From an uncultured Lachnospiraceae bacterium (GTDB lineage Bacteria > Bacillota > Clostridia > Lachnospirales > Lachnospiraceae), in the NCBI GenBank assembly GCA_948964755.1, contig CAREEU010000007.1, forward strand, positions 35,417 to 99,416: DNA of 64,000 nt. The letters run 5' to 3'. Below the pieces are notes generated by a model. That model saw nothing but the letters and a program-made list of their open reading frames with translations. It ran no database searches and was not told where the DNA came from. A program made the position numbers and the translations under genes. This document shows, in pieces, positions 2,181 to 53,510 of this stretch; within the stretch, counting starts at the first letter, position 1, and every line of letters starts with the position of its first letter.

Positions 2181-2441
2181 ACATAAATTGTGCCATAATA
2201 CAGCCAGAGTGCATTAGGGGTACACGGTGACTTCGTAGGAAAGTTAGAGGCTCTTAGACTTCTGTCGATCCATTAGGATTTTTTGCCATTCTCGAATGGC
2301 AAAAAAAGGGGTGTGTTTAGCCCGCTGTACGGGCGAATTGCACCCCGATCCGTCCGGTTAGATACACCCAACACCAGAAGTCTTAGAGCCTCTTACTTTC
2401 CGAAGAGCGGAACCGTGTACCCCTAATGCACTCTGGCGTCC
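2181..2441 (+). repeat. long palindromic element family 1 (LPE-1) copy A; A-type core, alpha-type 5' flank; preceded by an A-rich low-complexity tract at 2030-2200
   Basis: Conserved ends GCCAGAG/CTCTGGCGTCC. Long stem of about 65 bp encloses the core ttttttgccattctcgaatggcaaaaaaaggggtgtgtttagcccgctgtacgggcgaattgcacccc..ccgtccgg. Family has 9 copies in the window. Confidence 0.85.
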
Positions 2442-8531: not shown

Positions 8532-8560
8532 AATAGAGCTGAACCAGACACCGGACGTAT

Positions 8561-8692
8561 GAAGCAGAGAGGGTTTCTTTGCTGGGGCCGTTTGCACTAA
8601 GGCTTCCTCGCAGCGGACACATAAGGCACGAAAATACCGTGCCTAAGTGCCGGCGGGAAGCAATACCCCTGCAAAGAAACCCTCTCTGCTCC
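8561..8692 (+). repeat. element-3 repeat copy 1 (conserved ~90-nt core flanked by a copy-specific inverted stem)
   Basis: Core tggggccgtttgcactaaggcttcctcgcagcggacacataaggcacgaaaataccgtgcctaagtgccggcgggaagcaatacccctgca. Flanks gcagagagggtttctttgc / gcaaagaaaccctctctgc. Confidence 0.8.
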
Positions 8693-8836
8693 ATACTGTA
8701 TATTCCTAAATTCAAGTGTTCAAATTCGTCCTTCTGCATTTTCCCTATTGGGAACACAAACCAAATTTCCACGCTCTTAAAGTCATAGTAAAATGAAAGA
8801 AATTAAGTCATAAAACAAAAACGGAGAAAAGAAAAT

Positions 8837-9289
8837 ATGAAAAAGTACACATATATCACTTTAAGGCAAAAGCCACAGATAAAAGATACAGCAGCCGAAT
8901 GGTTCCATTGTAAATGGGGCGTTCCCAAAGAAGCTTATCTGGAATGTATGAACGCTTATCTTAACAACGAAACGGAATATGGCTGGTATCTTTGCTTAGA
9001 TGAGAAAAAAATAATAGGAGGTCTTGGTGTAATTGAAAATGACTTCCACAATAGAAAAGATCTTGTTCCTAATGTCTGTGCAGTCTATACAGAAAAAGAC
9101 TACCGATGTAGGGGGATAGCCGGACACTTGCTTAATATGGTGGTAGAGGATTTGAAATCCAAGTCCATAACGCCTATCTATTTACTTACTGATCATACCA
9201 GCTTCTATGAGAAATATGGCTGGGAATTCTTATATATGGTTCAAGGAGATGGAGAACCCCATATGTCAAGAATGTATATTCACAAATAA
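8837..9289 (+). CDS. GNAT family N-acetyltransferase
   Basis: 150 aa with GNAT fold motifs (ILGGLGV..CRGIAGHLL). Bracketed by inverted element-3 copies. Confidence 0.8.
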   Translation: MKKYTYITLRQKPQIKDTAAEWFHCKWGVPKEAYLECMNAYLNNETEYGWYLCLDEKKIIGGLGVIENDFHNRKDLVPNVCAVYTEKDYRCRGIAGHLLNMVVEDLKSKSITPIYLLTDHTSFYEKYGWEFLYMVQGDGEPHMSRMYIHK

Positions 9290-9318
9290 TTTCTAGCTTT
9301 CCGGTCGGAATACACAGC

Positions 9319-9456
9319 AGGCAGGAGAGAGGGAATCTTTGCAGGGGTATTGCTTCCCGCCGGCACTTAGGTGCTGTTCTTTAGCACCTTATGTGTCCGC
9401 TGCGAAGAAGCCTTAGTGCAAACGGCCCCAGCAAAGAATCCCTCTCTCCTGCCTGC
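9319..9456 (-). repeat. element-3 repeat copy 2 (inverted relative to copy 1)
   Basis: Reverse complement of the same core. Flanks gcaggcaggagagagggaatctttgc / gcaaagaatccctctctcctgcctgc. Confidence 0.8.
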
Positions 9457-9485
9457 GTCCTCCCCCCTCCTATTTATGTCCTTTC

Positions 9486-11390: not shown

Positions 11391-11512
11391 AATCAAATCG
11401 GATATTCGCAGTCCGCTTTGCTACTTGCTCATAACCTCATCAAGGAAGTCCCAACCCACCGCTTTCGCCTTGGCGGCTTAGAAGCGGGGAACTTCCTTGA
11501 TAAGATTAAAAG
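11391..11512 (+). repeat. SHE-2 copy (single GC-hairpin module)
   Basis: aatcaaatcggatattcgcagtccgctttgctacttgctcataacctcat caaggaagtccc..gggaacttccttg ataagattaaaag. Overlaps the stop codon of the 11506 gene. Confidence 0.75.
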
Positions 11513-20391: not shown

Positions 20392-21417
20392 TTATCTCAT
20401 CTCTTGAAACGTCCCCGCCATTCCCCCTACAAAGCTCCACTGCCGCTGCATATAAGATTTTAACTCTGCCGTACTCTGTCTATACTCCTCCAAAATTGCT
20501 TTCGGACGATCAAAATTTTTCGCTATTGCAGAAGCAGCACAATATCCGCTTTCCATTCCCGCCGATATTCCTTCCCCCATCGGATTCAAAAACCCTGCTG
20601 CCTCTCCTGCAAAAAGAACACGCCCTACCCCATAATCCACCTCACAGCCCGGTCGAATATGCGGCATCAGCCACTGTTCTTCCCTTATCTGCCTGCTGAT
20701 TTGCAAACGATAGTTCTTCTTCATATAAGCAAGAAACCGTTCATAATAACAACGAATCAAATCTCTATTTTTAACCGCCACTCCCAGCACCAGCAGATGA
20801 TCTTTTACATTAAACCACGCATCATACTCCGAAAATTCCGGCTGCAGATAGGCATAAAAATAACACAGATCCAAATCGATACTCCCCTCATAAAATGTCT
20901 GAAACGTAGTAATATATTCTGGAACTCTTCCTATAAGCTTTCGCTTTAATACCCCTACCACCCCTTCACAATCAAGAACATATCGAGCCTGTTCTCTATC
21001 ATTCCCCTCACCATGCAGACAAACTTCTACCAATTCATCCTGTTCCCCACAAAAAAGAGCCGTCACACCGTCCCTAACCTCTGCCCCATATTCCTCTGCT
21101 TTCTTCGCCAACCATCCATCAAAATAGCTCCGCCACACATTTAACCCGTCCTGCTCAAAACAATACTCTCTTCCCCGGTCATCTGCCATAATCATTCCTC
21201 TATTTTCTACCGGAGTACACATAACAGACTCCGGCACATCTTCTCCAAAATAAGACTTTACAAGCCCTACTGCCTTCCTTATCAAAACACCCGAACAAGA
21301 CTTATACCTAGGTATTTTAAACTTCTCCACCATAAGAACACGATATCCCTTTTCCGCTAAACACTTAGCAGCCGTACACCCGGCAGGTCCTGCCCCAACC
21401 ACTATCACATCATACAT
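20392..21417 (-). CDS. FAD-dependent oxidoreductase (geranylgeranyl-reductase-like)
   Basis: MYDVIVVGAGPAGCTAA dinucleotide-binding motif. Start ATG at 21417 preceded by AGGAAGGG. Confidence 0.75.
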   Translation of the reverse strand: MYDVIVVGAGPAGCTAAKCLAEKGYRVLMVEKFKIPRYKSCSGVLIRKAVGLVKSYFGEDVPESVMCTPVENRGMIMADDRGREYCFEQDGLNVWRSYFDGWLAKKAEEYGAEVRDGVTALFCGEQDELVEVCLHGEGNDREQARYVLDCEGVVGVLKRKLIGRVPEYITTFQTFYEGSIDLDLCYFYAYLQPEFSEYDAWFNVKDHLLVLGVAVKNRDLIRCYYERFLAYMKKNYRLQISRQIREEQWLMPHIRPGCEVDYGVGRVLFAGEAAGFLNPMGEGISAGMESGYCAASAIAKNFDRPKAILEEYRQSTAELKSYMQRQWSFVGGMAGTFQEMR

Positions 21418-21549: not shown

Positions 21550-21808
21550 GGACGCCAGAGAGTATTAAAAGCACGCTGTTCCGCTCTCCAGAAAACAGAA
21601 ACTCTAAGACTTCTGAATTTCAATGCATCCAACCGGACGGACCGGCACGCAATTCGCCTCTGCAGGAGGCTAAGCACGTGCCTTTTTCGGGCACAAGTGC
21701 CCGAAAATCCTACAGAATCGACAGAAGTCTAAGAGTTTCTAGTTTTCCTCCGAAGTCACAGCGTACTTTTAATACTCTCTGGCTATATAATTCCACAATT
21801 TACGTTTC
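21550..21808 (-). repeat. LPE-1 copy B (B-type core, alpha flank), head-to-head with copy C
   Basis: Core variant cggcacgcaattcgcctctgcaggaggctaagcacgtgcctttttcgggcacaagtgcccgaaaa. Ends ggacgccagag..ctctggct plus the flank tatataattccacaatttacgtttc. Confidence 0.85.
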
Positions 21809-22245
21809 TTTTCTTTCACGGTTGTATGGTTCTTCAATTTGCGTTTTTTCTCCTTGGTGGTTGTATGATTCTGCAATTTACGTTTCTTCCCCTTTATGGT
21901 TATATGACTCTGCAATTTATGTTTCTCCTTAGCGGTTGTATGATTCTGCAATTTACGTTTCTTCCCCTTTATGGTTATATGACTCTGCAATTTATGTTTC
22001 TCCTTAGCGGTTGTATGATTCTGCAATTTACATTTCTTCTCTTTCATGGTTGTATAATTCTGCAATTTATGTTTCTTCTTGGCGGTTGTATGATTCCGCA
22101 ATTTACGTTTCTTCTCTTTCATGGTTGTATAATTCTGCAATTTATGTTTCTTCCCCTTTGTGATTATATGACTCTGCAATTTATATTTCTTCTTGGCGGT
22201 TGTATGATTCCGCAATTTACGTTTCTTTTTCTTTGCAGATGTATA
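21795..22245. repeat. tandem array, about 12 units of 36-39 bp (AATTTAYGTTTCTTnnnCTTnnnGGTTGTATGATTCTGC), derived from the LPE-1 alpha flank
   Basis: Units alternate between two subtypes and are near-identical to one another. The first unit is continuous with the flank of copy B. Confidence 0.8.
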
Positions 22246-22365
22246 ATTTTATTTTGATAAACTCTATTCCAATAAAAGTATCTATAATAAACTCTAATCA
22301 GCTAAATCCAAAAACAAAATTATACTAACAGCAAAGATAACCTCTGCTATTGGCAAAAAATAAGA

Positions 22366-22634
22366 ACATAAATTGCGGGAATACCAGCCAGAGGGAGAAA
22401 GTAAAATGGTATCGCAGTGACTTCGGAGGAAAGTTAGAAGGTCTTAGACTTCTGTCGATTTTGTAGGATTTTCGGGCACTTGTGCCCGAAAAAGGCACGT
22501 GTTTAGCCTCCTGCAGAGGCGAATTGCGTGCCGGTCCGTCCGGTTGGATACACCGAAATTCAGAAGTCTTAGACCTTCTTACTTTCCGTAGAGCGGAACT
22601 GCGATACCATTTTACTTTCTCCCTCTGGCGTCCT
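22366..22634 (+). repeat. LPE-1 copy C (B-type core, alpha flank)
   Basis: acataaattgcgggaataccagccagag..ctctggcgtcc. Variable stem gggagaaagtaaaatggtatcgcag pairs with its own 3' arm. Confidence 0.85.
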
Positions 22635-22661
22635 CCCCCACCATCCTCCCCCACCATCTGC

Positions 22662-23636
22662 TCAATACTCCCACTCCAACCTCTTATCCTCAAAATACCG
22701 CAAAATCCAATAAGGATTCACACTCTGCTCCACATAATGCTCCGTCCGAATATAAATCCCAAGGTGCAGATGCACTGCAAAATTCCCCACTGTCCCTTCC
22801 ACCTTACTATATCCGCTGTCCCCCATAAATCCAATTAATTCTCCTGCACAAACCCTATCCCCTTCCTTCCATTCTTTTGCATAACGATAGAGATGTGCAT
22901 AATAAAAATATCCCCCATTCGGGCTGCGAATCCCAATCCGATATCCGCCCTTTTCTAACCATCCAATCCGTTCCACCACTCCATCTGTCATACTGACAAT
23001 CGGAAAATACCCCCGCTCATTATTCCCTGCCATAATATCACACCCCTCATGCACATGAGAAGCATCCCGATAAATCCGCTCACTTCCCCACCCATCGCTA
23101 TAGTAAACTTCCGCTGCCCGCAGATTCCTGCTCTTAGGCACTGGAAAATAAACAATATCCGAAATCACCGCCCGATAAGCCGCCAGCAGCTTTTCATACT
23201 CCTCCTGCTGCCGTTCCTCATACCACGCTTTACAATCCTGAAAATAGGTAACCTCTCGCATCGAATCCGGCATAGCAGCAAATCGATCCAACTGAAACTC
23301 ACTAATCCCCATCCACACCGCCAAAACCTCTTCAATAGGAATCTGATGCACCCTTTGAAATTCCTTTAAATCCGTAATTGCTTCTTCGCTCATCTGCATT
23401 TCCCGAAAATTCTCCGTCTCATAAGCACAGGCAGGAAGCCGGCATACTCCTCCACGAACCAGCAAATGATCCAATAAAATCACATTAAAAACAGCAAAAA
23501 AAATCAATACTCCAAAGAACCAATATAAACCCGTCCGATTTTTCTGCCCTTTATACCTTCTTACTGAATAAGCCTGCACCCCTATTCCTCCCCATCTATC
23601 AAAAGCTCTGTCTAAAGCATTGTATTCTGCCCCCAA
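22662..23636 (-). CDS. M23-family peptidoglycan endopeptidase (LytM-like) with N-terminal TM anchor
   Basis: C-terminal M23 motifs HEGCDI..YAHL..GDSGYS..HLH. 324 aa. Confidence 0.8.
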   Translation of the reverse strand: MGAEYNALDRAFDRWGGIGVQAYSVRRYKGQKNRTGLYWFFGVLIFFAVFNVILLDHLLVRGGVCRLPACAYETENFREMQMSEEAITDLKEFQRVHQIPIEEVLAVWMGISEFQLDRFAAMPDSMREVTYFQDCKAWYEERQQEEYEKLLAAYRAVISDIVYFPVPKSRNLRAAEVYYSDGWGSERIYRDASHVHEGCDIMAGNNERGYFPIVSMTDGVVERIGWLEKGGYRIGIRSPNGGYFYYAHLYRYAKEWKEGDRVCAGELIGFMGDSGYSKVEGTVGNFAVHLHLGIYIRTEHYVEQSVNPYWILRYFEDKRLEWEY

Positions 23637-29349: not shown

Positions 29350-31113
29350 ATGAGAAAACATACGCTAGAAACCCGCTGGACACAGCAAATTACAGAAACA
29401 AATGCCTGGCAGGAATACCCTCGCCCTACTATGGTTCGCTCCTCTTATATAAACCTAAATGGTTACTGGGATTACAAAATCAGCAGACGTCACACCTTTC
29501 CCTCCGCCTATAGCGGAAAAATCCTAGTTCCGTTCTCTCCCGAATCCAAACTATCCGGTGTACAGCGTCAGTTAAAACCAAATGAATATCTCTGGTACCA
29601 CAGAACCCTTACCCCTTTATCATTTTCCAAACAAGAACGCCTCTATCTGCACTTTGGTGCAGTAGACCAATCCTGCACCATTTACCTCAACCGCCGGAAA
29701 GTCGGTTCCCATCAGGGAGGCTATCTTCCTTTTTCGATTGACATTACGGAAGCGATGCGGCACGCTTCACCCAAAAAGCCTCTAGACTTATTCGTATGTG
29801 TAACCGATCCCAGTGACACCTCCTATCACAGCCGGGGCAAACAAAAGCTCCGCAACGGCGGAATGTTTTATACTGCACAAAGCGGAATCTGGCAGACCGT
29901 CTGGATGGAACTTGTACCGGAAAATTTTATCCGCTATGTCAAATTCACTCCTGACTACGATAAAAAAGAAGTAAAAGTAAAGATTGCTACAGAAAAAACC
30001 TGTCCTGCTGTATTACATCTAAAATTAGAATCCGGCGATCTCTCTTATTCTTTTACAAGCAACCAAAGCTTTCGGATTCCGATTCGGGAATTTCACGCAT
30101 GGAGTCCAGAGCATCCCTATCTGTACCAAGTAAAAATCACTACAAAGACAGACTGTATCTCCAGTTACTTTGCCCTAAGAAAATGTGAAATTCAAACCGA
30201 TTCAAACGGAATCCGAAAAATCTTTCTTAATAATCGCCCCTATCCGCAGATTGGCATCCTCGATCAGGGATACTGGCCAGACGGACTCTATACCCCGCCC
30301 TGTGAAGAAGCGATTTTATTTGATCTTTTGGCAATAAAAAAATTGGGATTTAATATGATCCGCAAACATGTAAAAATCGAATCGGAACGCTGGTACTATC
30401 ACTGTGATCGGCTTGGTATTCTAGTCTGGCAGGATATGGTAAATGGCGGCTCACGCTACCACCGCTGGTTTGTTACCTACTTTGCCACTCTCTTTAACTG
30501 CCTGAATATCCGAATATTTGATCGTCCTCATGCTTTATTTTCACGCAGACAAAAAGAAAGCCGAACCGAATGGACCAAAGAAGTCGTATCCACTGTCCGC
30601 ACCTTATATCCTCATCCCTGCATTGTATGCTGGGTTCCATTTAACGAAGGATGGGGACAGTTTCGTGCACTTTCAGCAGCAGAATTGATTCGCAGTCTAG
30701 ACAAAGAGCGGCTGATCGATCACGCCAGCGGCTGGTTTGATCAGGGAGGCGGCGATATAAAAAGTATTCACTACTATTTCTTCTCCCTGATTCTAAAACC
30801 GGAACGGCGTGCACTCGCTCTGACCGAATTCGGCGGCTACACTTGGCATGTAAAAAAACACAGCTATTCCTCCAAAAAATTTGGCTATCGAACTTTTTAC
30901 AGCAAAAATTCCCTGTCAAAAGGCTATGCCAAATTATTAGAAGACCTGATTTTTCCTGCATTTCAAAACGGACTTTCCGCCTCCGTCTATACCCAGCTTT
31001 CCGATGTAGAAGAGGAACTAAACGGCATCTTTACCTATGACAGAAAAATTCTGAAATTAGACAAAAAAACGGTTACCGAATGGAACCAAAAAATAAAAAA
31101 TCTAATCGAGTAG
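29350..31113 (+). CDS. glycoside hydrolase family 2 protein (beta-glucuronidase/beta-galactosidase-like)
   Basis: 587 aa. GH2 sugar-binding domain (..HQGGYLPFSIDIT..) and TIM-barrel region with WVPFNEGWG. Confidence 0.75.
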   Translation: MRKHTLETRWTQQITETNAWQEYPRPTMVRSSYINLNGYWDYKISRRHTFPSAYSGKILVPFSPESKLSGVQRQLKPNEYLWYHRTLTPLSFSKQERLYLHFGAVDQSCTIYLNRRKVGSHQGGYLPFSIDITEAMRHASPKKPLDLFVCVTDPSDTSYHSRGKQKLRNGGMFYTAQSGIWQTVWMELVPENFIRYVKFTPDYDKKEVKVKIATEKTCPAVLHLKLESGDLSYSFTSNQSFRIPIREFHAWSPEHPYLYQVKITTKTDCISSYFALRKCEIQTDSNGIRKIFLNNRPYPQIGILDQGYWPDGLYTPPCEEAILFDLLAIKKLGFNMIRKHVKIESERWYYHCDRLGILVWQDMVNGGSRYHRWFVTYFATLFNCLNIRIFDRPHALFSRRQKESRTEWTKEVVSTVRTLYPHPCIVCWVPFNEGWGQFRALSAAELIRSLDKERLIDHASGWFDQGGGDIKSIHYYFFSLILKPERRALALTEFGGYTWHVKKHSYSSKKFGYRTFYSKNSLSKGYAKLLEDLIFPAFQNGLSASVYTQLSDVEEELNGIFTYDRKILKLDKKTVTEWNQKIKNLIE

Positions 31114-31255
31114 GAAAGGTTACTTTCCCTACTCGCTGTCTCAGGCGTCCGTCAGCTCCGCTGACCTATTTCATTAAAACATTCATGTGCATAAAAAGGG
31201 ACTGCTGCAAAATAATAAATTCCTATCCTATTTTGCAGCAGCCCCTTTTCCACTA
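31107..31255 (+). repeat. module-5 repeat (gagtaggg hairpin + gtcagc..gctgac hairpin) fused to a bidirectional terminator between convergent genes
   Basis: atcgagtaggaaaggttactttccctactcgctg..gtcagctccgctgac.. then gggactgctgcaaaata..tattttgcagcagcccc flanked by A and T tracts. The GH2 stop codon lies inside the first hairpin. Confidence 0.65.
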
Positions 31256-31723
31256 TAAAATCACTTCCATCCCAACTTTCTGAGGCTTTAACCCACAGGA
31301 CTGATAAAATTTCATAGCAGATTCATTTAAGCTCCAGACATTTAAGGTTACATTATAACACTGATTCTGCCTTGCAAGTGCAAGCACTTCCTGATAAAGC
31401 TGCTTTCCTATATGTTGTCCTCTCTGCGTCTCCTCCACACAGAGATCATCAATATACAAAGTCTTTATATCCGTTAAAATATTATTTTCTTTTTGCTGCT
31501 GAAAAACACAAAAGGCATAACCCAAAACCTGCTGTTCCGAATCCACCGCTACTAAAATAGGTCTCTGATCATCACAAATCAATTCCTTTAACTGTTCATC
31601 CGTATATTTCTTTGCACCATACTTAAATAAATCCGGTCTTCCTCTATGATGCACCAGACACACCTGCATCAGCAGCCGATTAATCCCCTCCATATCGCTT
31701 TCTTCCGCCCGTCTAATTTTCAT
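31253..31723 (-). CDS. GNAT family N-acetyltransferase
   Basis: 156 aa. Acetyl-CoA binding region ..QRGQHIGKQLYQEVL.. Confidence 0.8.
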   Translation of the reverse strand: MKIRRAEESDMEGINRLLMQVCLVHHRGRPDLFKYGAKKYTDEQLKELICDDQRPILVAVDSEQQVLGYAFCVFQQQKENNILTDIKTLYIDDLCVEETQRGQHIGKQLYQEVLALARQNQCYNVTLNVWSLNESAMKFYQSCGLKPQKVGMEVIL

Positions 31724-31757: not shown

Positions 31758-32414
31758 CTATTCCACTTCTGCTTCTATCGCTTCCACTACTAAAATACTC
31801 TCAATCACCGGCTGTTTCTCTTTTGGCAGCACCCCGCTCAACCCCTGCTCGGAAGCTTCTTTACAGATCGCATCCACAATCTCCATTCCCTCCGTAACAT
31901 AACCAAACACAGCATAATCTCCGTCCAAATGAGGGCTGTCCTCATGCACAATAAAAAACTGCGAACTGGCACTGTCCGGTATCATAGAACGTGCCATAGA
32001 AATCGCACCCCGTGTATGCTTAAGCGGATTATCCACTCCATTATTCGGAAATTCTCCAACAATTTTCGTATCCGAACCGCCGTAACCATCCCCCTGCGGA
32101 TCGCCTCCCTGTATCATAAACCCGTCTATCACTCGATGAAAAGTAAGCCCATCATAAAAATTAGATTCCGCAAGCTGAATAAAATTTGTAACTGTAATCG
32201 GAGCACTATCTGCATCTAACTCAGCATAAATAATTCCCTTATCCTTTACATGAATCTCTATCTGATGCTTCCCTGTCAGATAAGACTCCTCTGTACTAGA
32301 TTCTGTTTCTGCAGAAGGCACCTCCCCTTTTCCACAAGCAGTTATCCCTATTATAAAAAATAAAACCAAAACCACAAAACCATATAATCCCTTTTTCTGA
32401 TACAATTTTTTCAT
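31758..32414 (-). CDS. cyclophilin-type peptidyl-prolyl cis-trans isomerase, lipoprotein
   Basis: Lipobox ITAC. Cyclophilin motifs FHRVIDGFMIQGGDP. Confidence 0.85.
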   Translation of the reverse strand: MKKLYQKKGLYGFVVLVLFFIIGITACGKGEVPSAETESSTEESYLTGKHQIEIHVKDKGIIYAELDADSAPITVTNFIQLAESNFYDGLTFHRVIDGFMIQGGDPQGDGYGGSDTKIVGEFPNNGVDNPLKHTRGAISMARSMIPDSASSQFFIVHEDSPHLDGDYAVFGYVTEGMEIVDAICKEASEQGLSGVLPKEKQPVIESILVVEAIEAEVE

Positions 32415-33287: not shown

Positions 33288-33546
33288 GGACGCCAGAGTG
33301 TTTTAGGGAGACGTGTTCCGCTCTCCAGAAAGCAGAAGTTCTAAGACTTCTGAATTTCCGTGCATCCCACCGGACGGACCGGCACGCAATTCGCCTCTGC
33401 AGGAGGCTAAACACGTGCCTTTTTCGGGCACAAGTGCCCGAAAATCCTACAGAATCGACAGAAGTCTAAGAACTTCTGCTTTCCTCCGAAGTCACAGCGT
33501 CTCCCTAAAGCACTCTGGCTGTATTGTCTCACAATTTACGTTTCCT
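33288..33546 (-). repeat. LPE-1 copy D (B-type core, alpha flank), head-to-head with copy E
   Basis: ggacgccagagtgttttagggagacgtg..core..cagcgtctccctaaagcactctggct gtattgtctcacaatttacgtttc. Confidence 0.85.
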
Positions 33547-33674
33547 TTCTCGATCCTCTATGAATACAGGAATCAACTTTTATGTTTTCTTTTCTCGATC
33601 CTCTATGGATACATAAATCAATTTCCATGTTTTCCTTTTTCGAACCTCTATGGATACAGGAATCAAATAAAAAC
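33547..33674. repeat. tandem array, about 3 units of ~46 bp, reiterating the alpha-flank-like sequence between LPE-1 copies D and E
   Basis: ctttctcgatcctctatgaatacaggaatcaacttttatgttttc repeated with variation. Confidence 0.7.
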
Positions 33675-33943
33675 TTATCGGCAGGAAAAAACAGCCAGAG
33701 TGGGGAAAAGATTCCTTGCCACTGTGACTTCGGAAAAAGTTAGAAAGTCTTATGCTTTTGTCGATCCACTAGGATTTTTTGCCATTCTCGAATGGCAAAA
33801 AAAGGGGTGTGTTTAGCCCGCTGTACGGGCGAATTGCACCCCGGTCCGTCCGGCTGGATGTATCTACATTCAAAAGCATTAGACTTTCTTACTTTTTGGA
33901 GAGCGGAACAGTGGCAAGGAATCTTTTCCCCACTCTAGCGTCC
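33675..33943 (+). repeat. LPE-1 copy E (A-type core, beta flank)
   Basis: tatcggcaggaaaaaacagccagag tggggaaaagattccttgccactg..core..cagtggcaaggaatcttttcccca ctctagcgtcc. Confidence 0.85.
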
Positions 33944-37862: not shown

Positions 37863-37950
37863 TATACCATCGAGTAGGAAAATTTCCTCTCCTTACTCGC
37901 TGCACCAAGCGTCCATCAGCTCCGCTAACATCGTTCCCTTGGACGCCCGC
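37863..37950 (+). repeat. module-5 repeat copy
   Basis: atcgagtaggaaaatttcctctccttactcgctg..catcagctccgctaac..cgttcccttg..catacataaaaaaa. Same order and orientation as the copies at 31107 and 49320. Confidence 0.65.
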
Positions 37951-37954
37951 ATAC

Positions 37955-38100
37955 ATAAAAAAATGCAGACACGCAAAAAGCATATCTGCACCGTTCTTCC
38001 GCAAATGATGTCCCTACGTTGGCATTATCCAAATCAGGTTTTAAGGGTAAAAGCCTCACATGCTTACTCTCAGCCTATTCTAATAAGCTCCCCATATATT
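37955..38100 (-). ncRNA. TPP riboswitch (THI element) with terminator-type expression platform
   Basis: Minus-strand sequence ggggagc..aggctgagag..acccttaaaacctgatttggataatgccaacgtagggaca matches the TPP aptamer consensus (CUGAGA, ACCUGAUCUGGAUAAUGCCAGCGUAGGGAA). It is followed by the hairpin gcagatatgc/gcgtgtctgc and a T7 run. Confidence 0.75.
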
Positions 38101-38159
38101 TCTATTATAACCTCTTTTTAAAAAAACACAATCCCCTTTTTCCAACAAAATCCTTTAAC

Positions 38160-38334
38160 CCCTCCCAACACCATACCTCATTTGAACCTCTATTTTTTAC
38201 TGAAATTATTCGAACCAAGTCCAATCAAATCCAACACCATACCTCATTTGAACTCCTATCTTTTACTGAAATTGGTCCAACCAAGTCCAATCAAATCCAA
38301 CATCGTACCTCATTTGAGCCTCTATCTTTTACTC
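38160..38334. repeat. tandem array, about 3 units of ~62 bp, immediately 5' of LPE-1 copy F
   Basis: tccaacaccatacctcatttgaacctctattttttactgaaattattcgaaccaagtccaatcaaa repeated with variation. Confidence 0.7.
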
Positions 38335-38603
38335 TATCGGCAGGATAAATCAGCCAGAACAAAGAAGCAATTTCTTGCTGACGTGACTTCGGAGAAAAGT
38401 TAGAAAGTCTTACGCTTTTGTCGATCCACTAGGATTTTTTGCCATTCCCGAATGGCAAAAAAAGGGGTGTGTTTAGCCCGCTGCACGGGCGAATTGCACC
38501 CCGGTCCGTCCGGCTGGATGCATCAAAATTCAAAAGCGTTAGACTTTCTTACTTTTCGGAGAGCGGAACGTCAGCAAGAAATTGCTTCTTTGTTCTAGCG
38601 TCC
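38335..38603 (+). repeat. LPE-1 copy F (A-type core, beta flank)
   Basis: tatcggcaggataaatcagccagaac aaagaagcaatttcttgctgacg..core..cgtcagcaagaaattgcttctttg ttctagcgtcc. Confidence 0.85.
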
Positions 38604-48892: not shown

Positions 48893-49158
48893 GGACGCCA
48901 GAGTATGGCATTACAGTACTGTTCCGCTCTACAGAAAGTAAGAAGCTCTAAGACTTCTGAATTTAGATGCATCCAACCGGACGGACCGGGGTGCAATTCG
49001 CCCGTGCTGCGGGCTAAACACACCCCTTTTTTTGCCATTCAAGAATGGCAAAAAATCCTAATGAATCGACAGAAGTCTAAAAGCTTCTAACTTTCCTCCG
49101 AAGTCACAGTACTGCAATGCCATACTCTGGCTGTCTTTTTCCACAATATAGGTATTCT
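48893..49158 (-). repeat. LPE-1 copy H (A-type core, alpha-like flank)
   Basis: ggacgccagag tatggcattacagtactg..core (tttttttgccattcaagaatggcaaaaaa)..cagtactgcaatgccata ctctggctg tctttttccacaatataggtattc. Confidence 0.85.
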
Positions 49159-49290: not shown

Positions 49291-49319
49291 TTTGTTATGT
49301 TCTTTCTATTTTTATAATC

Positions 49320-49445
49320 GAGTAGGGAAGGCTGCCTCCTCTACTCGCCGTGCTAAATGTCTGTCAGTTCTGCTGACATCGTTCCTTGAGATATCTGTGT
49401 ACATAAAAAAATTCCCTGTAAACATTTCGTCTACAGAGAACGCCC
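49320..49445 (+). repeat. module-5 repeat copy (contains the tRNA-Leu terminator on its minus strand)
   Basis: atcgagtagggaaggctgcctcctctactcgcc..gtcagttctgctgac..cgttccttg..tacataaaaaaa..ctgtaaacatttcgtctacag. Confidence 0.65.
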
Positions 49446-53109: not shown

Positions 53110-53376
53110 TATCGCCAGAAAGAACCAGCTGGAGTTTGGAAGCCCTTTCTCTATGCAGTGACTTCGGAGAAAAGTTAGAAAGTCTTATGCCTCTGTCGAT
53201 CTCCTAGGATTTTTGCCATCTTCTGATGGCAAAAAAGGGGTGTGTTTAGCCCGCTGCACGGGCGAATTGCACCCCGGTCCGTCCGGTTGGATATATTTTC
53301 ATTCAGAGGCATTAGACTTTCTTACTTTTCGGAGAGCGGAACAGCATAGAGAAAGGGCTTCCAAACTCCAGCGTCC
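53110..53376 (+). repeat. LPE-1 copy I (A-type core with gccatc/gatggc hairpin variant, beta-like flank)
   Basis: atcgccagaaagaaccagctggag tttggaagccctttctctatgcag..core (tttgccatcttctgatggcaaaa)..ctgcatagagaaagggcttccaaa ctccagcgtcc. Confidence 0.85.
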
Positions 53377-53510
53377 TCTACACCATCCCCCAGCTTTTCC
53401 ATCCTAATATCCACACATCATCCCCCAACTTTCCCATCTCAATATTCACACCATCCCCCCAACTTTCCCATCTCAGTATCCACACCATTCCCATTCCCCT
53501 CAACCTTCAC
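53377..53510. repeat. tandem array, about 3 units of ~37 bp, immediately 3' of LPE-1 copy I
   Basis: catcccccaactttcccatctcaatattcacac repeated with variation. Confidence 0.65.

Follow-up and report, generated by a model that had tools for sequence, protein, structure and literature searches.

A tandem array lying between two inverted copies of a structured intergenic repeat was analysed in a 64,000-nt stretch of DNA (hereafter the window) from an uncultured Lachnospiraceae bacterium (assembly GCA_948964755.1, contig CAREEU010000007.1, positions 35,417 to 99,416). The repeat, called LPE-1 in an earlier prediction made on this DNA without database searches (the original prediction), is an already described family, the TwoAYGGAY RNA (Rfam RF01731). 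The window contains exactly nine copies of it (A to I), 233-252 nt long. On balance we favour the view that the region between copies B and C is a real minisatellite between inverted copies of this known structured repeat, formed in place and changed by slippage or unequal exchange.

The B-C array is located in a 1.24-kb intergenic interval between an M23 peptidase gene and a FAD-dependent oxidoreductase gene. As predicted, copies B (minus) and C (plus) face each other, 5′ end to 5′ end, across an array of about 450 bp, which we resolved into 12 units of 36 or 39 bp. Tandem Repeats Finder (TRF) reported a period of 39 bp x11.4 (75% matches), a period of 75 bp x4.6 (90% matches) and also a period of 150 bp, and the higher-order organisation of the array is one of 75- and 150-bp blocks. 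Units 2-3 and 4-5 constitute an exact 75-bp tandem duplication (21858-21932 = 21933-22007). The units had been described as near-identical, a description not sustained by 75% matches at the 39-bp period. All units have the orientation of the 5′ extension of copy B. Their least variable part is the stretch that matches the 5′ extension of the family, with the variable part lying between. On the minus strand, the AT-rich spacer that separates the array from copy C has a small hairpin resembling a terminator (22351-22327).

We also considered the B-C array as a structured RNA and as a promoter array. As RNA it was less structured than shuffles (z=+2.6), and promoter-like sites in it were not more frequent than in shuffles; both candidates were rejected on these grounds.

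The relation between the hairpin flanks and the arrays was analysed by local alignment against shuffled queries. The 30-nt flank of copy B recurs in the B-C array (z=10.7) and is identical at 25 of 27 positions to the most distal complete unit. The flanks of A, C, D and H also match this array (z=2.3-4.7), while those of E, F, G and I, which are built differently, gave no match to it. The same 30-nt 5′ extension of B precedes A, C, D, H and the plus-oriented element of another locus, L014, and marks one subfamily of the element. Because the flank of B is this conserved subfamily extension, the B-C array repeats part of the element rather than an anonymous flank. The original prediction that the array is continuous with the flank of the minus-oriented copy therefore holds for B, with the amendment that this flank is itself part of the family.

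Only four arrays in the window had a TRF score above 100, and they are situated 2, 18, 19 and 4 nt from the ends of B, D/E, F and I, respectively. When arrays of these lengths were placed at random 20,000 times within the 10.3 kb of intergenic DNA, not once did all four come within 25 nt of an element end. This agrees with the earlier claim that locus-specific arrays abut LPE-1 ends. The positions claimed for the individual arrays were also right, namely between the facing copies D (minus) and E (plus), on the 5′ side of F and on the 3′ side of I, but the unit lengths required correction: from 46 to 45 bp for D-E, from 62 to 66 bp for F and from 37 to ~34-35 bp for I. Across all loci studied, the periods are 13, 20, 22, 34, 36/39, 45 and 66 bp, and arrays occur on either side of the hairpin. 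Unit sequences are unrelated between loci, except that the B and D units share the 5′-extension motif.

The I array repeats the 3′ flank of copy I (z=5.9). In the plus copies, the C-rich 3′ tail lies 25-58 nt from the stop codon of a convergent gene; copy I is the exception, with a distance of 144 nt that includes 113 nt of array. The array thus appears to have pushed the element from ~30 to 144 nt away from the stop codon, which indicates that it is younger than the element.

Arrays beside hairpins were also found outside the window and in a second family. We used concatenated six-frame peptides of the element core to find spurious open reading frames (ORFs), and the two hits led to loci L013 and L014. 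L014 probably belongs to the same species as the window, since the samples that contain it also have window-identical contigs and its NCBI protein accession is close to that of an oxidoreductase from the window's 90%-identity cluster. It has an inverted element pair around a GNAT acetyltransferase gene (L014 1931-3118), with no array between the two elements. Directly after the plus-oriented element comes a 20-bp array that repeats the hairpin's own last 20 nt, TCCCTGCCAAACCGCCGTCC, and its most distal unit is identical to the hairpin end at 18 of 20 positions (z=7.0). The original prediction had proposed looking for arrays at other genomic LPE-1 copies, and L014 provides one.

The second family, J (~150-185 nt), is a hairpin whose core, CTGGGGCCGTTTGCACTAAGGCTTCCTCGCAGCGGACACATAAGG..., is conserved and whose outer stem varies but stays paired. 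Rfam has no match for it, and the covariance model that we built from the nine window copies of TwoAYGGAY (R1) touches copy J1 weakly (21 bits). One of its three copies in the window, J3, has an adjoining array (Table 1). We then took the TwoAYGGAY sequences of Psychromonas ingrahamii from the supplementary alignment of Weinberg 2010 (NC_008709.1/3670439-3669875 and neighbouring entries), in which the element precedes a hairpin and, after it, repeated modules of ~115 nt. In one of them the modules form a tandem pair (TRF period 115 x1.9); in a second copy the ~115-nt module recurs, not in tandem (judged by eye, with TRF silent); and one P. ingrahamii entry has a 14-bp x2.8 repeat upstream. Tandem repetition beside the hairpin is present at several loci and in two hairpin families in the species, and at a minimum of one gamma-proteobacterial copy.

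Exact-pattern scans for the element core in genome, metagenome and viral contig collections gave chance matches only, the genome hit lying in a coding region, and blastn searches of plasmid and phage sequences with the element were negative. The proteins encoded around the array assign the window to an uncultured Lachnospiraceae. Its nearest named relative (76% protein identity) has the oxidoreductase homologues in another gene order and without the element.

The original prediction proposed comparing array copy number across assemblies. Related material consisted of many metagenome-assembled genomes (MAGs) and metagenome contigs at 98-100% nucleotide identity to the window. Further strains were taken as members of the oxidoreductase cluster, and units were counted between fixed anchors in B and C. 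Twelve units were found in the window, L011/L017, L012, L030 and L031. In L030 and L031 a single-nucleotide polymorphism (SNP) distinguishes two 75-bp blocks, which an assembler could hence resolve separately. Ten units were found in L032 and L034 and eight in L021, L025 and L033, the latter with two internal structures, one of which has a hybrid unit; the contig of L026 stops before C and shows the same eight units. These alleles differ by whole 75-bp blocks. All of these counts come from short-read assemblies, and the shorter alleles may be the result of assembly collapse. Two NCBI MAGs whose records contain the exact product of the plus-strand ORF agree with the window in the order of B, array and C, with 99.9% identity and no gap.

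The L014-type array consists of 20-bp units, five of them in L014 and four in both L038 and L039; its ~100 bp fit within a single read. Unit numbers of the D-E and F arrays are unchanged in L041 and L042 (~1.1% diverged from the window). The F array has nevertheless diverged by 4.8% between strains against a background of 1.1%, and the changes make unit 1 resemble unit 2. They look like conversion or unequal exchange between units. Copies B, C, D, E and F were at the same sites in every strain examined (at least 98.3% identity).

Table 1. Elements, arrays and adjoining genes in the 64-kb window. R1, covariance model built from the nine window copies.
Feature	Positions	Strand	Details
B-C minisatellite	21786-22248	-	12 units alternating 39/36 bp; TRF, repeat-family search (family D1) and manual unit list
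Conserved 5′ extension of B, AGAAAAGAAACGTAAATTGTGGAATTATAT, the element-proximal array unit	21785-21821	-	Alignment of copies
AT-rich unique spacer, array to copy C	22249-22385		137 bp; includes C's own 5′ extension, ACATAAATTGCGGGAATACC
Mini-array, 13 bp x2.2, TCCTCCCCCACCA	22631-22658	+	Begins in last 3 nt of copy C; TRF, 100% matches
M23 peptidase gene	22662-23636	-	Right of copy C, convergent with it
FAD-dependent oxidoreductase gene	20392-21417	-	Left of copy B
Copy A	2202-2441	+	R1 266.2 bits; no array of score >=50 at its ends
Copy B	21550-21784	-	235 nt; R1 249.5 bits; minimum free energy as RNA -129 kcal/mol
Copy C	22386-22633	+	248 nt; R1 268.9 bits; RF01731 match 22422-22594, 75.1 bits
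Copy D	33288-33520	-	R1 239.5 bits
Copy E	33693-33943	+	R1 268.9 bits; 47 nt from ThiC stop codon
Copy F	38352-38603	+	R1 281.8 bits
Copy G	42990-43238	+	R1 264.9 bits; no large array
Copy H	48893-49132	-	R1 268.4 bits; RF01731 match 48927-49102, 68.2 bits; no array
Copy I	53127-53376	+	R1 267.2 bits
D-E array, 45 bp x~3	33541-33675 (TRF 33541-33666)	-	TRF, repeat family D17; fills gap between 5′ ends of D and E
F array, 66 bp x2.6	38165-38333	+	TRF, repeat family D14; 5′ side of F, stops 18 nt short of hairpin
I array, ~34-35 bp x3.3	53380-53492	+	TRF; 3′ side of I, before M32 peptidase stop codon
J3 array, 22 bp x2.5	63099-63153	+	TRF; directly 5′ of J3 hairpin; flank repeated, z=5.5
J1	8537-8721	+	Family J
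J2	9307-9460	-	Family J
J3	63160-63312	+	Family J

The assignment of LPE-1 to TwoAYGGAY was based on copies C and H, which exceed the RF01731 gathering score (43 bits) with matches spanning the full model (1-168) under permissive filters. The default gathering-mode Rfam scan of the whole window detected none of the nine copies, and permissive cmscan left the other seven unreported, even in small regions (D and E included). These seven are plainly homologous to C and H, with a mean column identity of 82%, and all nine scored 240-282 bits with R1. Since the default scan misses all nine copies and the permissive scan reports two, routine annotation would leave these elements unnamed. TwoAYGGAY has been described as 'probably an RNA', not cis-regulatory, from human gut samples, Clostridiales and gamma-proteobacteria, often with a very long closing stem (PMC2864571), and it has been proposed to be a CsrA-binding small RNA (sRNA) (PMC4333381). 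We found no experimentally established function of TwoAYGGAY in the literature searched. The 'drum' motif of Weinberg 2017 was also considered and is unrelated to the element.

The RNAalifold consensus of the nine copies contains 82 pairs, with double compensatory changes at 32 of them. A number of G-U pairs are invariant and favour the strand given in Rfam, and in eight of the nine copies the sense strand folds more stably than its complement. As RNA, the copies fold at -129 to -151 kcal/mol; as single-stranded DNA, copy C folds at -88.8 kcal/mol (z=-16.9). The second helix (~25 bp) corresponds to the published large P1 closing stem. Two small hairpins carry YUAGGAU and (U/C)UGGAU, so that the GGAY core is retained and the strict A-Y prefix is not. 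The Rfam core is enclosed by an extra outer helix of 26-32 bp (alignment A2, columns 9-33 and 217-241), whose sequence is different in every copy but whose pairing is almost perfect, while the inner helices are conserved in sequence. This variable yet paired helix could result from fast compensatory evolution or from templated correction within the hairpin. It is shut by a conserved clamp, AGCCAGAG...CTCTGGCGTCC, and conserved 5′ and 3′ extensions flank the element, which has a conserved ...CGTCC tail. In copies A-D and the plus-oriented element of L014, a GTAAATT motif is found at positions -19 to -13 relative to the hairpin. The outer helices of B and C are unrelated to each other, and D and E belong to different subfamilies.

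The elements also have regular positions relative to genes. The 3′ end of copy C is 29 nt from the M23 peptidase stop codon. The minus copies (B, D and H) are located 117-133 nt upstream of start codons, copy B being 133 nt upstream of that of the oxidoreductase gene. A promoter-like site was found in the interval between copy B and its gene; for D and H there are similar candidates by eye only. In several copies a U-rich tract directly follows the hairpin on the strand opposite to the Rfam sense (GUUUUUUCC in E, G and L014a). From its sequence, the antisense hairpin of these copies looks like a giant intrinsic terminator for the upstream gene.

In the explanation that we favour, an extremely stable hairpin would stall replication or be cut, and realignment or repair would then duplicate the adjoining 13-66 bp at the base of the hairpin. 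For copy B, the duplicated stretch would be the element's own conserved 5′ extension. Once two units exist, slipped-strand mispairing and unequal exchange would allow the array to grow, shrink and become homogenised, and would yield the 75- and 150-bp blocks and the differences between strains. The occurrence of arrays on either side, with unrelated periods and at a second hairpin family too, suggests that the hairpin promotes the first duplication. Because the arrays are found on both sides, each with its own sequence and period, and at family J as well, a physical effect of the hairpin is indicated rather than a family-specific module. The B and L014 arrays are clearly younger than the element, since they copy element sequence. 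The subsequent dynamics of slippage or unequal exchange are shown directly for L014 and are probable for B-C, and the F array has conversion-like changes. Slippage promoted by the adjacent hairpin was one of the two possibilities raised in the original prediction, and it fits the local origin of the repeated sequence at either end, the strain changes by whole units or 75-bp blocks and the presence of arrays at an unrelated hairpin family. The arrays themselves are probably without function, their main effect being an altered spacing between hairpin and gene. A broader proposal would be that stable hairpins, those of TwoAYGGAY and of family J alike, are general birthplaces of minisatellites in this genome, their ends being duplicated again and again into arrays of variable copy number, and that persisting arrays tune the distance or strength of the hairpin's action on nearby genes (for instance termination or regulator titration), thus forming hairpin-anchored contingency loci in a gut commensal; we offer this tentatively and regard it as rather doubtful.

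Several observations weigh against this explanation. Four of the nine copies (A, E, G and H) have no array. Only ~14 nt of the flank of D reappear in the units of the D-E array, short of significance (z=1.3), so that the predicted continuity of this array with the flank of its minus-oriented copy was not borne out. The immediate flank of F is not repeated in the F array, whose units come from sequence further out. Shuffle tests showed no significant repetition of the first or last 22 nt of the hairpin in any window array. As the first 22 nt are unrepeated, the duplications in the window cannot be shown to have ended within the stem. The period is a multiple of three in every array on the 5′ side of an element (36, 39, 45 and 66 bp), which may be due to chance. 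The least variable part of the B-C unit is the conserved 5′ extension, a pattern that might indicate a binding site under selection instead of neutral evolution. Several contigs end inside the exact 75-bp duplication or carry a 100-N gap there, and the link between stalling and duplication is one that we infer. By eye, the units had seemed to contain the first 10-16 nt of the hairpin in degenerate form, but this impression found no support from shuffle tests in any window array.

The main rival explanation is that the arrays are functional cis-elements, that is, repeated protein or RNA binding sites (GAAACGTAAATTG motif) whose copy number tunes termination, the stability of transcripts or the titration of a regulator. 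One version of it is a CsrA-sponge role extended by extra GGA motifs, in keeping with the proposal of TwoAYGGAY as a CsrA-binding sRNA (PMC4333381). The fixed position of GTAAATT in A-D and L014(+), its conservation above that of the rest of the array units, and a copy number that appears variable between strains all agree with such a role. However, the F, I, C and L014 arrays do not have the motif, four of the nine copies do without arrays altogether, the promoter signal is not above chance, and the GC skew of the window (-0.2 to -0.48) could alone enrich GGA motifs. We therefore consider this explanation, including its CsrA version, unlikely. Slightly less credible to us is that the arrays belong, as built-in modules, to a mosaic mobile element, similar to BOX, bacterial interspersed mosaic elements (BIMEs) or neisserial intergenic mosaic elements (NIMEs), which spread together with the element, B-array-C being a composite foldback unit. 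Head-to-head pairs recur (B/C and D/E, with another inverted pair at L014), such dimers are typical of families of repetitive extragenic palindromes (REPs) (PMC3733652), P. ingrahamii copies are followed by ~115-nt repeated modules, and B and D share extended flanks on both sides (repeat families D12 and D20). But unit sequence and period differ at every locus, with the arrays outside the hairpin, and the inverted pair at L014 encloses a gene instead of an array. Given the unrelated outer helices of B and C and the different subfamilies of D and E, the pairs are not inverted duplications of one unit. The pattern scans of other collections, with their chance matches only, likewise tell against a spreading module.

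Two further explanations concern the B-C array itself. It might encode a repetitive small protein, either from a minus-strand ORF (21769-22215, with a lysine-rich KEKKRKLQNHTTA repeat) or from a plus-strand ORF (21826-22257). Both ORFs are open through the array, the units are multiples of three, the 75-bp steps keep the frame, and gene callers have annotated one or the other in MAGs. A stop-free unit that keeps the frame would, however, be expected to leave both strands open. Neither ORF had a Pfam match, a database search with the plus-strand ORF gave no homologues, variability is flat by codon position (0.09, 0.16 and 0.10) in both frames, and the unit is homologous to the non-coding 5′ extension at other element copies; a protein product is thus very improbable. 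We give equally little credence to an assembly artefact, by expansion or chimera, which would have overturned the original prediction. The short-read contigs that end in the array or have the 100-N gap at the exact duplication would be in line with it. It is nevertheless largely refuted by independent assemblies, as the B-array-C arrangement is reproduced without gaps at 99.9% identity in the two NCBI MAGs, and two ENA assemblies reproduce the 12 units with 75-bp blocks separated by a SNP.

Our analysis also revealed other features near these repeats. The window has a GNAT gene of its own (8837-9289, plus), which is enclosed by the inverted pair J1/J2, parallel to the GNAT gene between LPE-1 copies at L014, and whose orientation opposes that of nearly all its neighbours. 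A GNAT gene between inverted hairpins could constitute a hairpin-flanked gene cassette. Two more repeat families were identified, K (1855-2019, 11400-11511, 40182-40346 and 63816-63887) and L (31103-31197, 37867-37961 and 49315-49409); neither had an Rfam match, one copy of each being present in the searched regions. The genome is unusually rich in intergenic repeats. A thiamine pyrophosphate (TPP) riboswitch (37994-38104, minus; 67.7 bits) is located upstream of thiamine genes, with the F array and copy F just upstream of the riboswitch. A vault-protein-like gene (40461-42899, minus; 812 aa) matched the Pfam Major Vault Protein shoulder (1.4e-22) and the Vault_3 repeat (6.6e-07). In L041 there is a 9-bp insertion, GTTTCTTTC, at ~31749, in or next to the gene pair 31253-31723 / 31758-32414.

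As regards significance, TwoAYGGAY, a widespread gut-associated RNA motif without an assigned function since 2010, behaves here as a very dense REP-like intergenic element with a fixed position relative to gene ends, a fast-evolving paired helix and unstable terminal arrays. This behaviour favours terminator or insulator assays and replication-stalling assays over sRNA assays alone. The arrays supply natural markers of variable size for typing strains of this uncultured Lachnospiraceae bacterium. Should hairpin ends indeed seed minisatellites, this would be a concrete mechanism for the origin of variable-number tandem repeats (VNTRs) in bacteria; if they do not, what is seen here is common repeat instability beside an already described element.

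Among known systems, the element is similar to published TwoAYGGAY in its full-model match (C and H), its long closing stem, its two GGA-containing loops, its occurrence in gut Clostridiales and its multiple copies. It differs in having the hypervariable paired outer helix of 26-32 bp, the clamp, the 5′ and 3′ extensions and nine copies per 64 kb. Descriptions of TwoAYGGAY (PMC2864571 with its supplementary text; PMC4333381) do not mention terminal minisatellites, an extra helix or copy density, and a keyword search of the literature found no description of such terminal arrays. REPs/BIMEs and CGTC-tagged palindromes are high-copy sequences, mostly just downstream of genes, often arranged as head-to-head dimers and provided with an unpaired GTAG or CGTC tag (the GTAG type being associated with a transposase, RAYT), and structures of the REP type can, according to the authors, stall replication (PMC3733652). 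Our element is likewise high-copy and extragenic and has the ...CGTCC tail at one end (leaving tag polarity aside). However, REPs are 20-40 nt long with stems of 5-13 bp, whereas this element has 233-252 nt and a multi-branched core, and so does not belong to the REPs. No REP-associated tyrosine transposase (RAYT) or other transposase was found among the flanking genes scanned. A miniature inverted-repeat transposable element (MITE) was considered and rejected, as there is no flanking direct repeat at the copies and copies B, C, D, E and F occupy the same sites in all strains of at least 98.3% identity. The arrays are not CRISPR arrays, in agreement with the original prediction; their units are contiguous, without unique spacers, and the 18 flanking genes scanned against Pfam are housekeeping genes.

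In the pneumococcal BOX element, boxB is a unit of ~45 bp in variable number that is placed internally, flanked by boxA and boxC, and its sequence is constant across loci. Here, too, a structured intergenic repeat is combined with a tandem unit of variable number, but the units are locus-specific and lie outside the hairpin, and the modular repeat of BOX type that the original prediction envisaged does not apply. Mycobacterial interspersed repetitive units (MIRUs) of Mycobacterium tuberculosis are intergenic units of tens of bp whose number varies from strain to strain in whole-unit steps, with periods that are in some cases multiples of three, and they form genome-wide families. In contrast, each array described here is unique and is anchored to the end of a hairpin element. 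Strain differences by whole units, as expected of a bacterial minisatellite or VNTR, were found for the L014-type array and, with the caveat of short-read assemblies, for the B-C array. The arrays look like by-products of slippage rather than a new genetic system.

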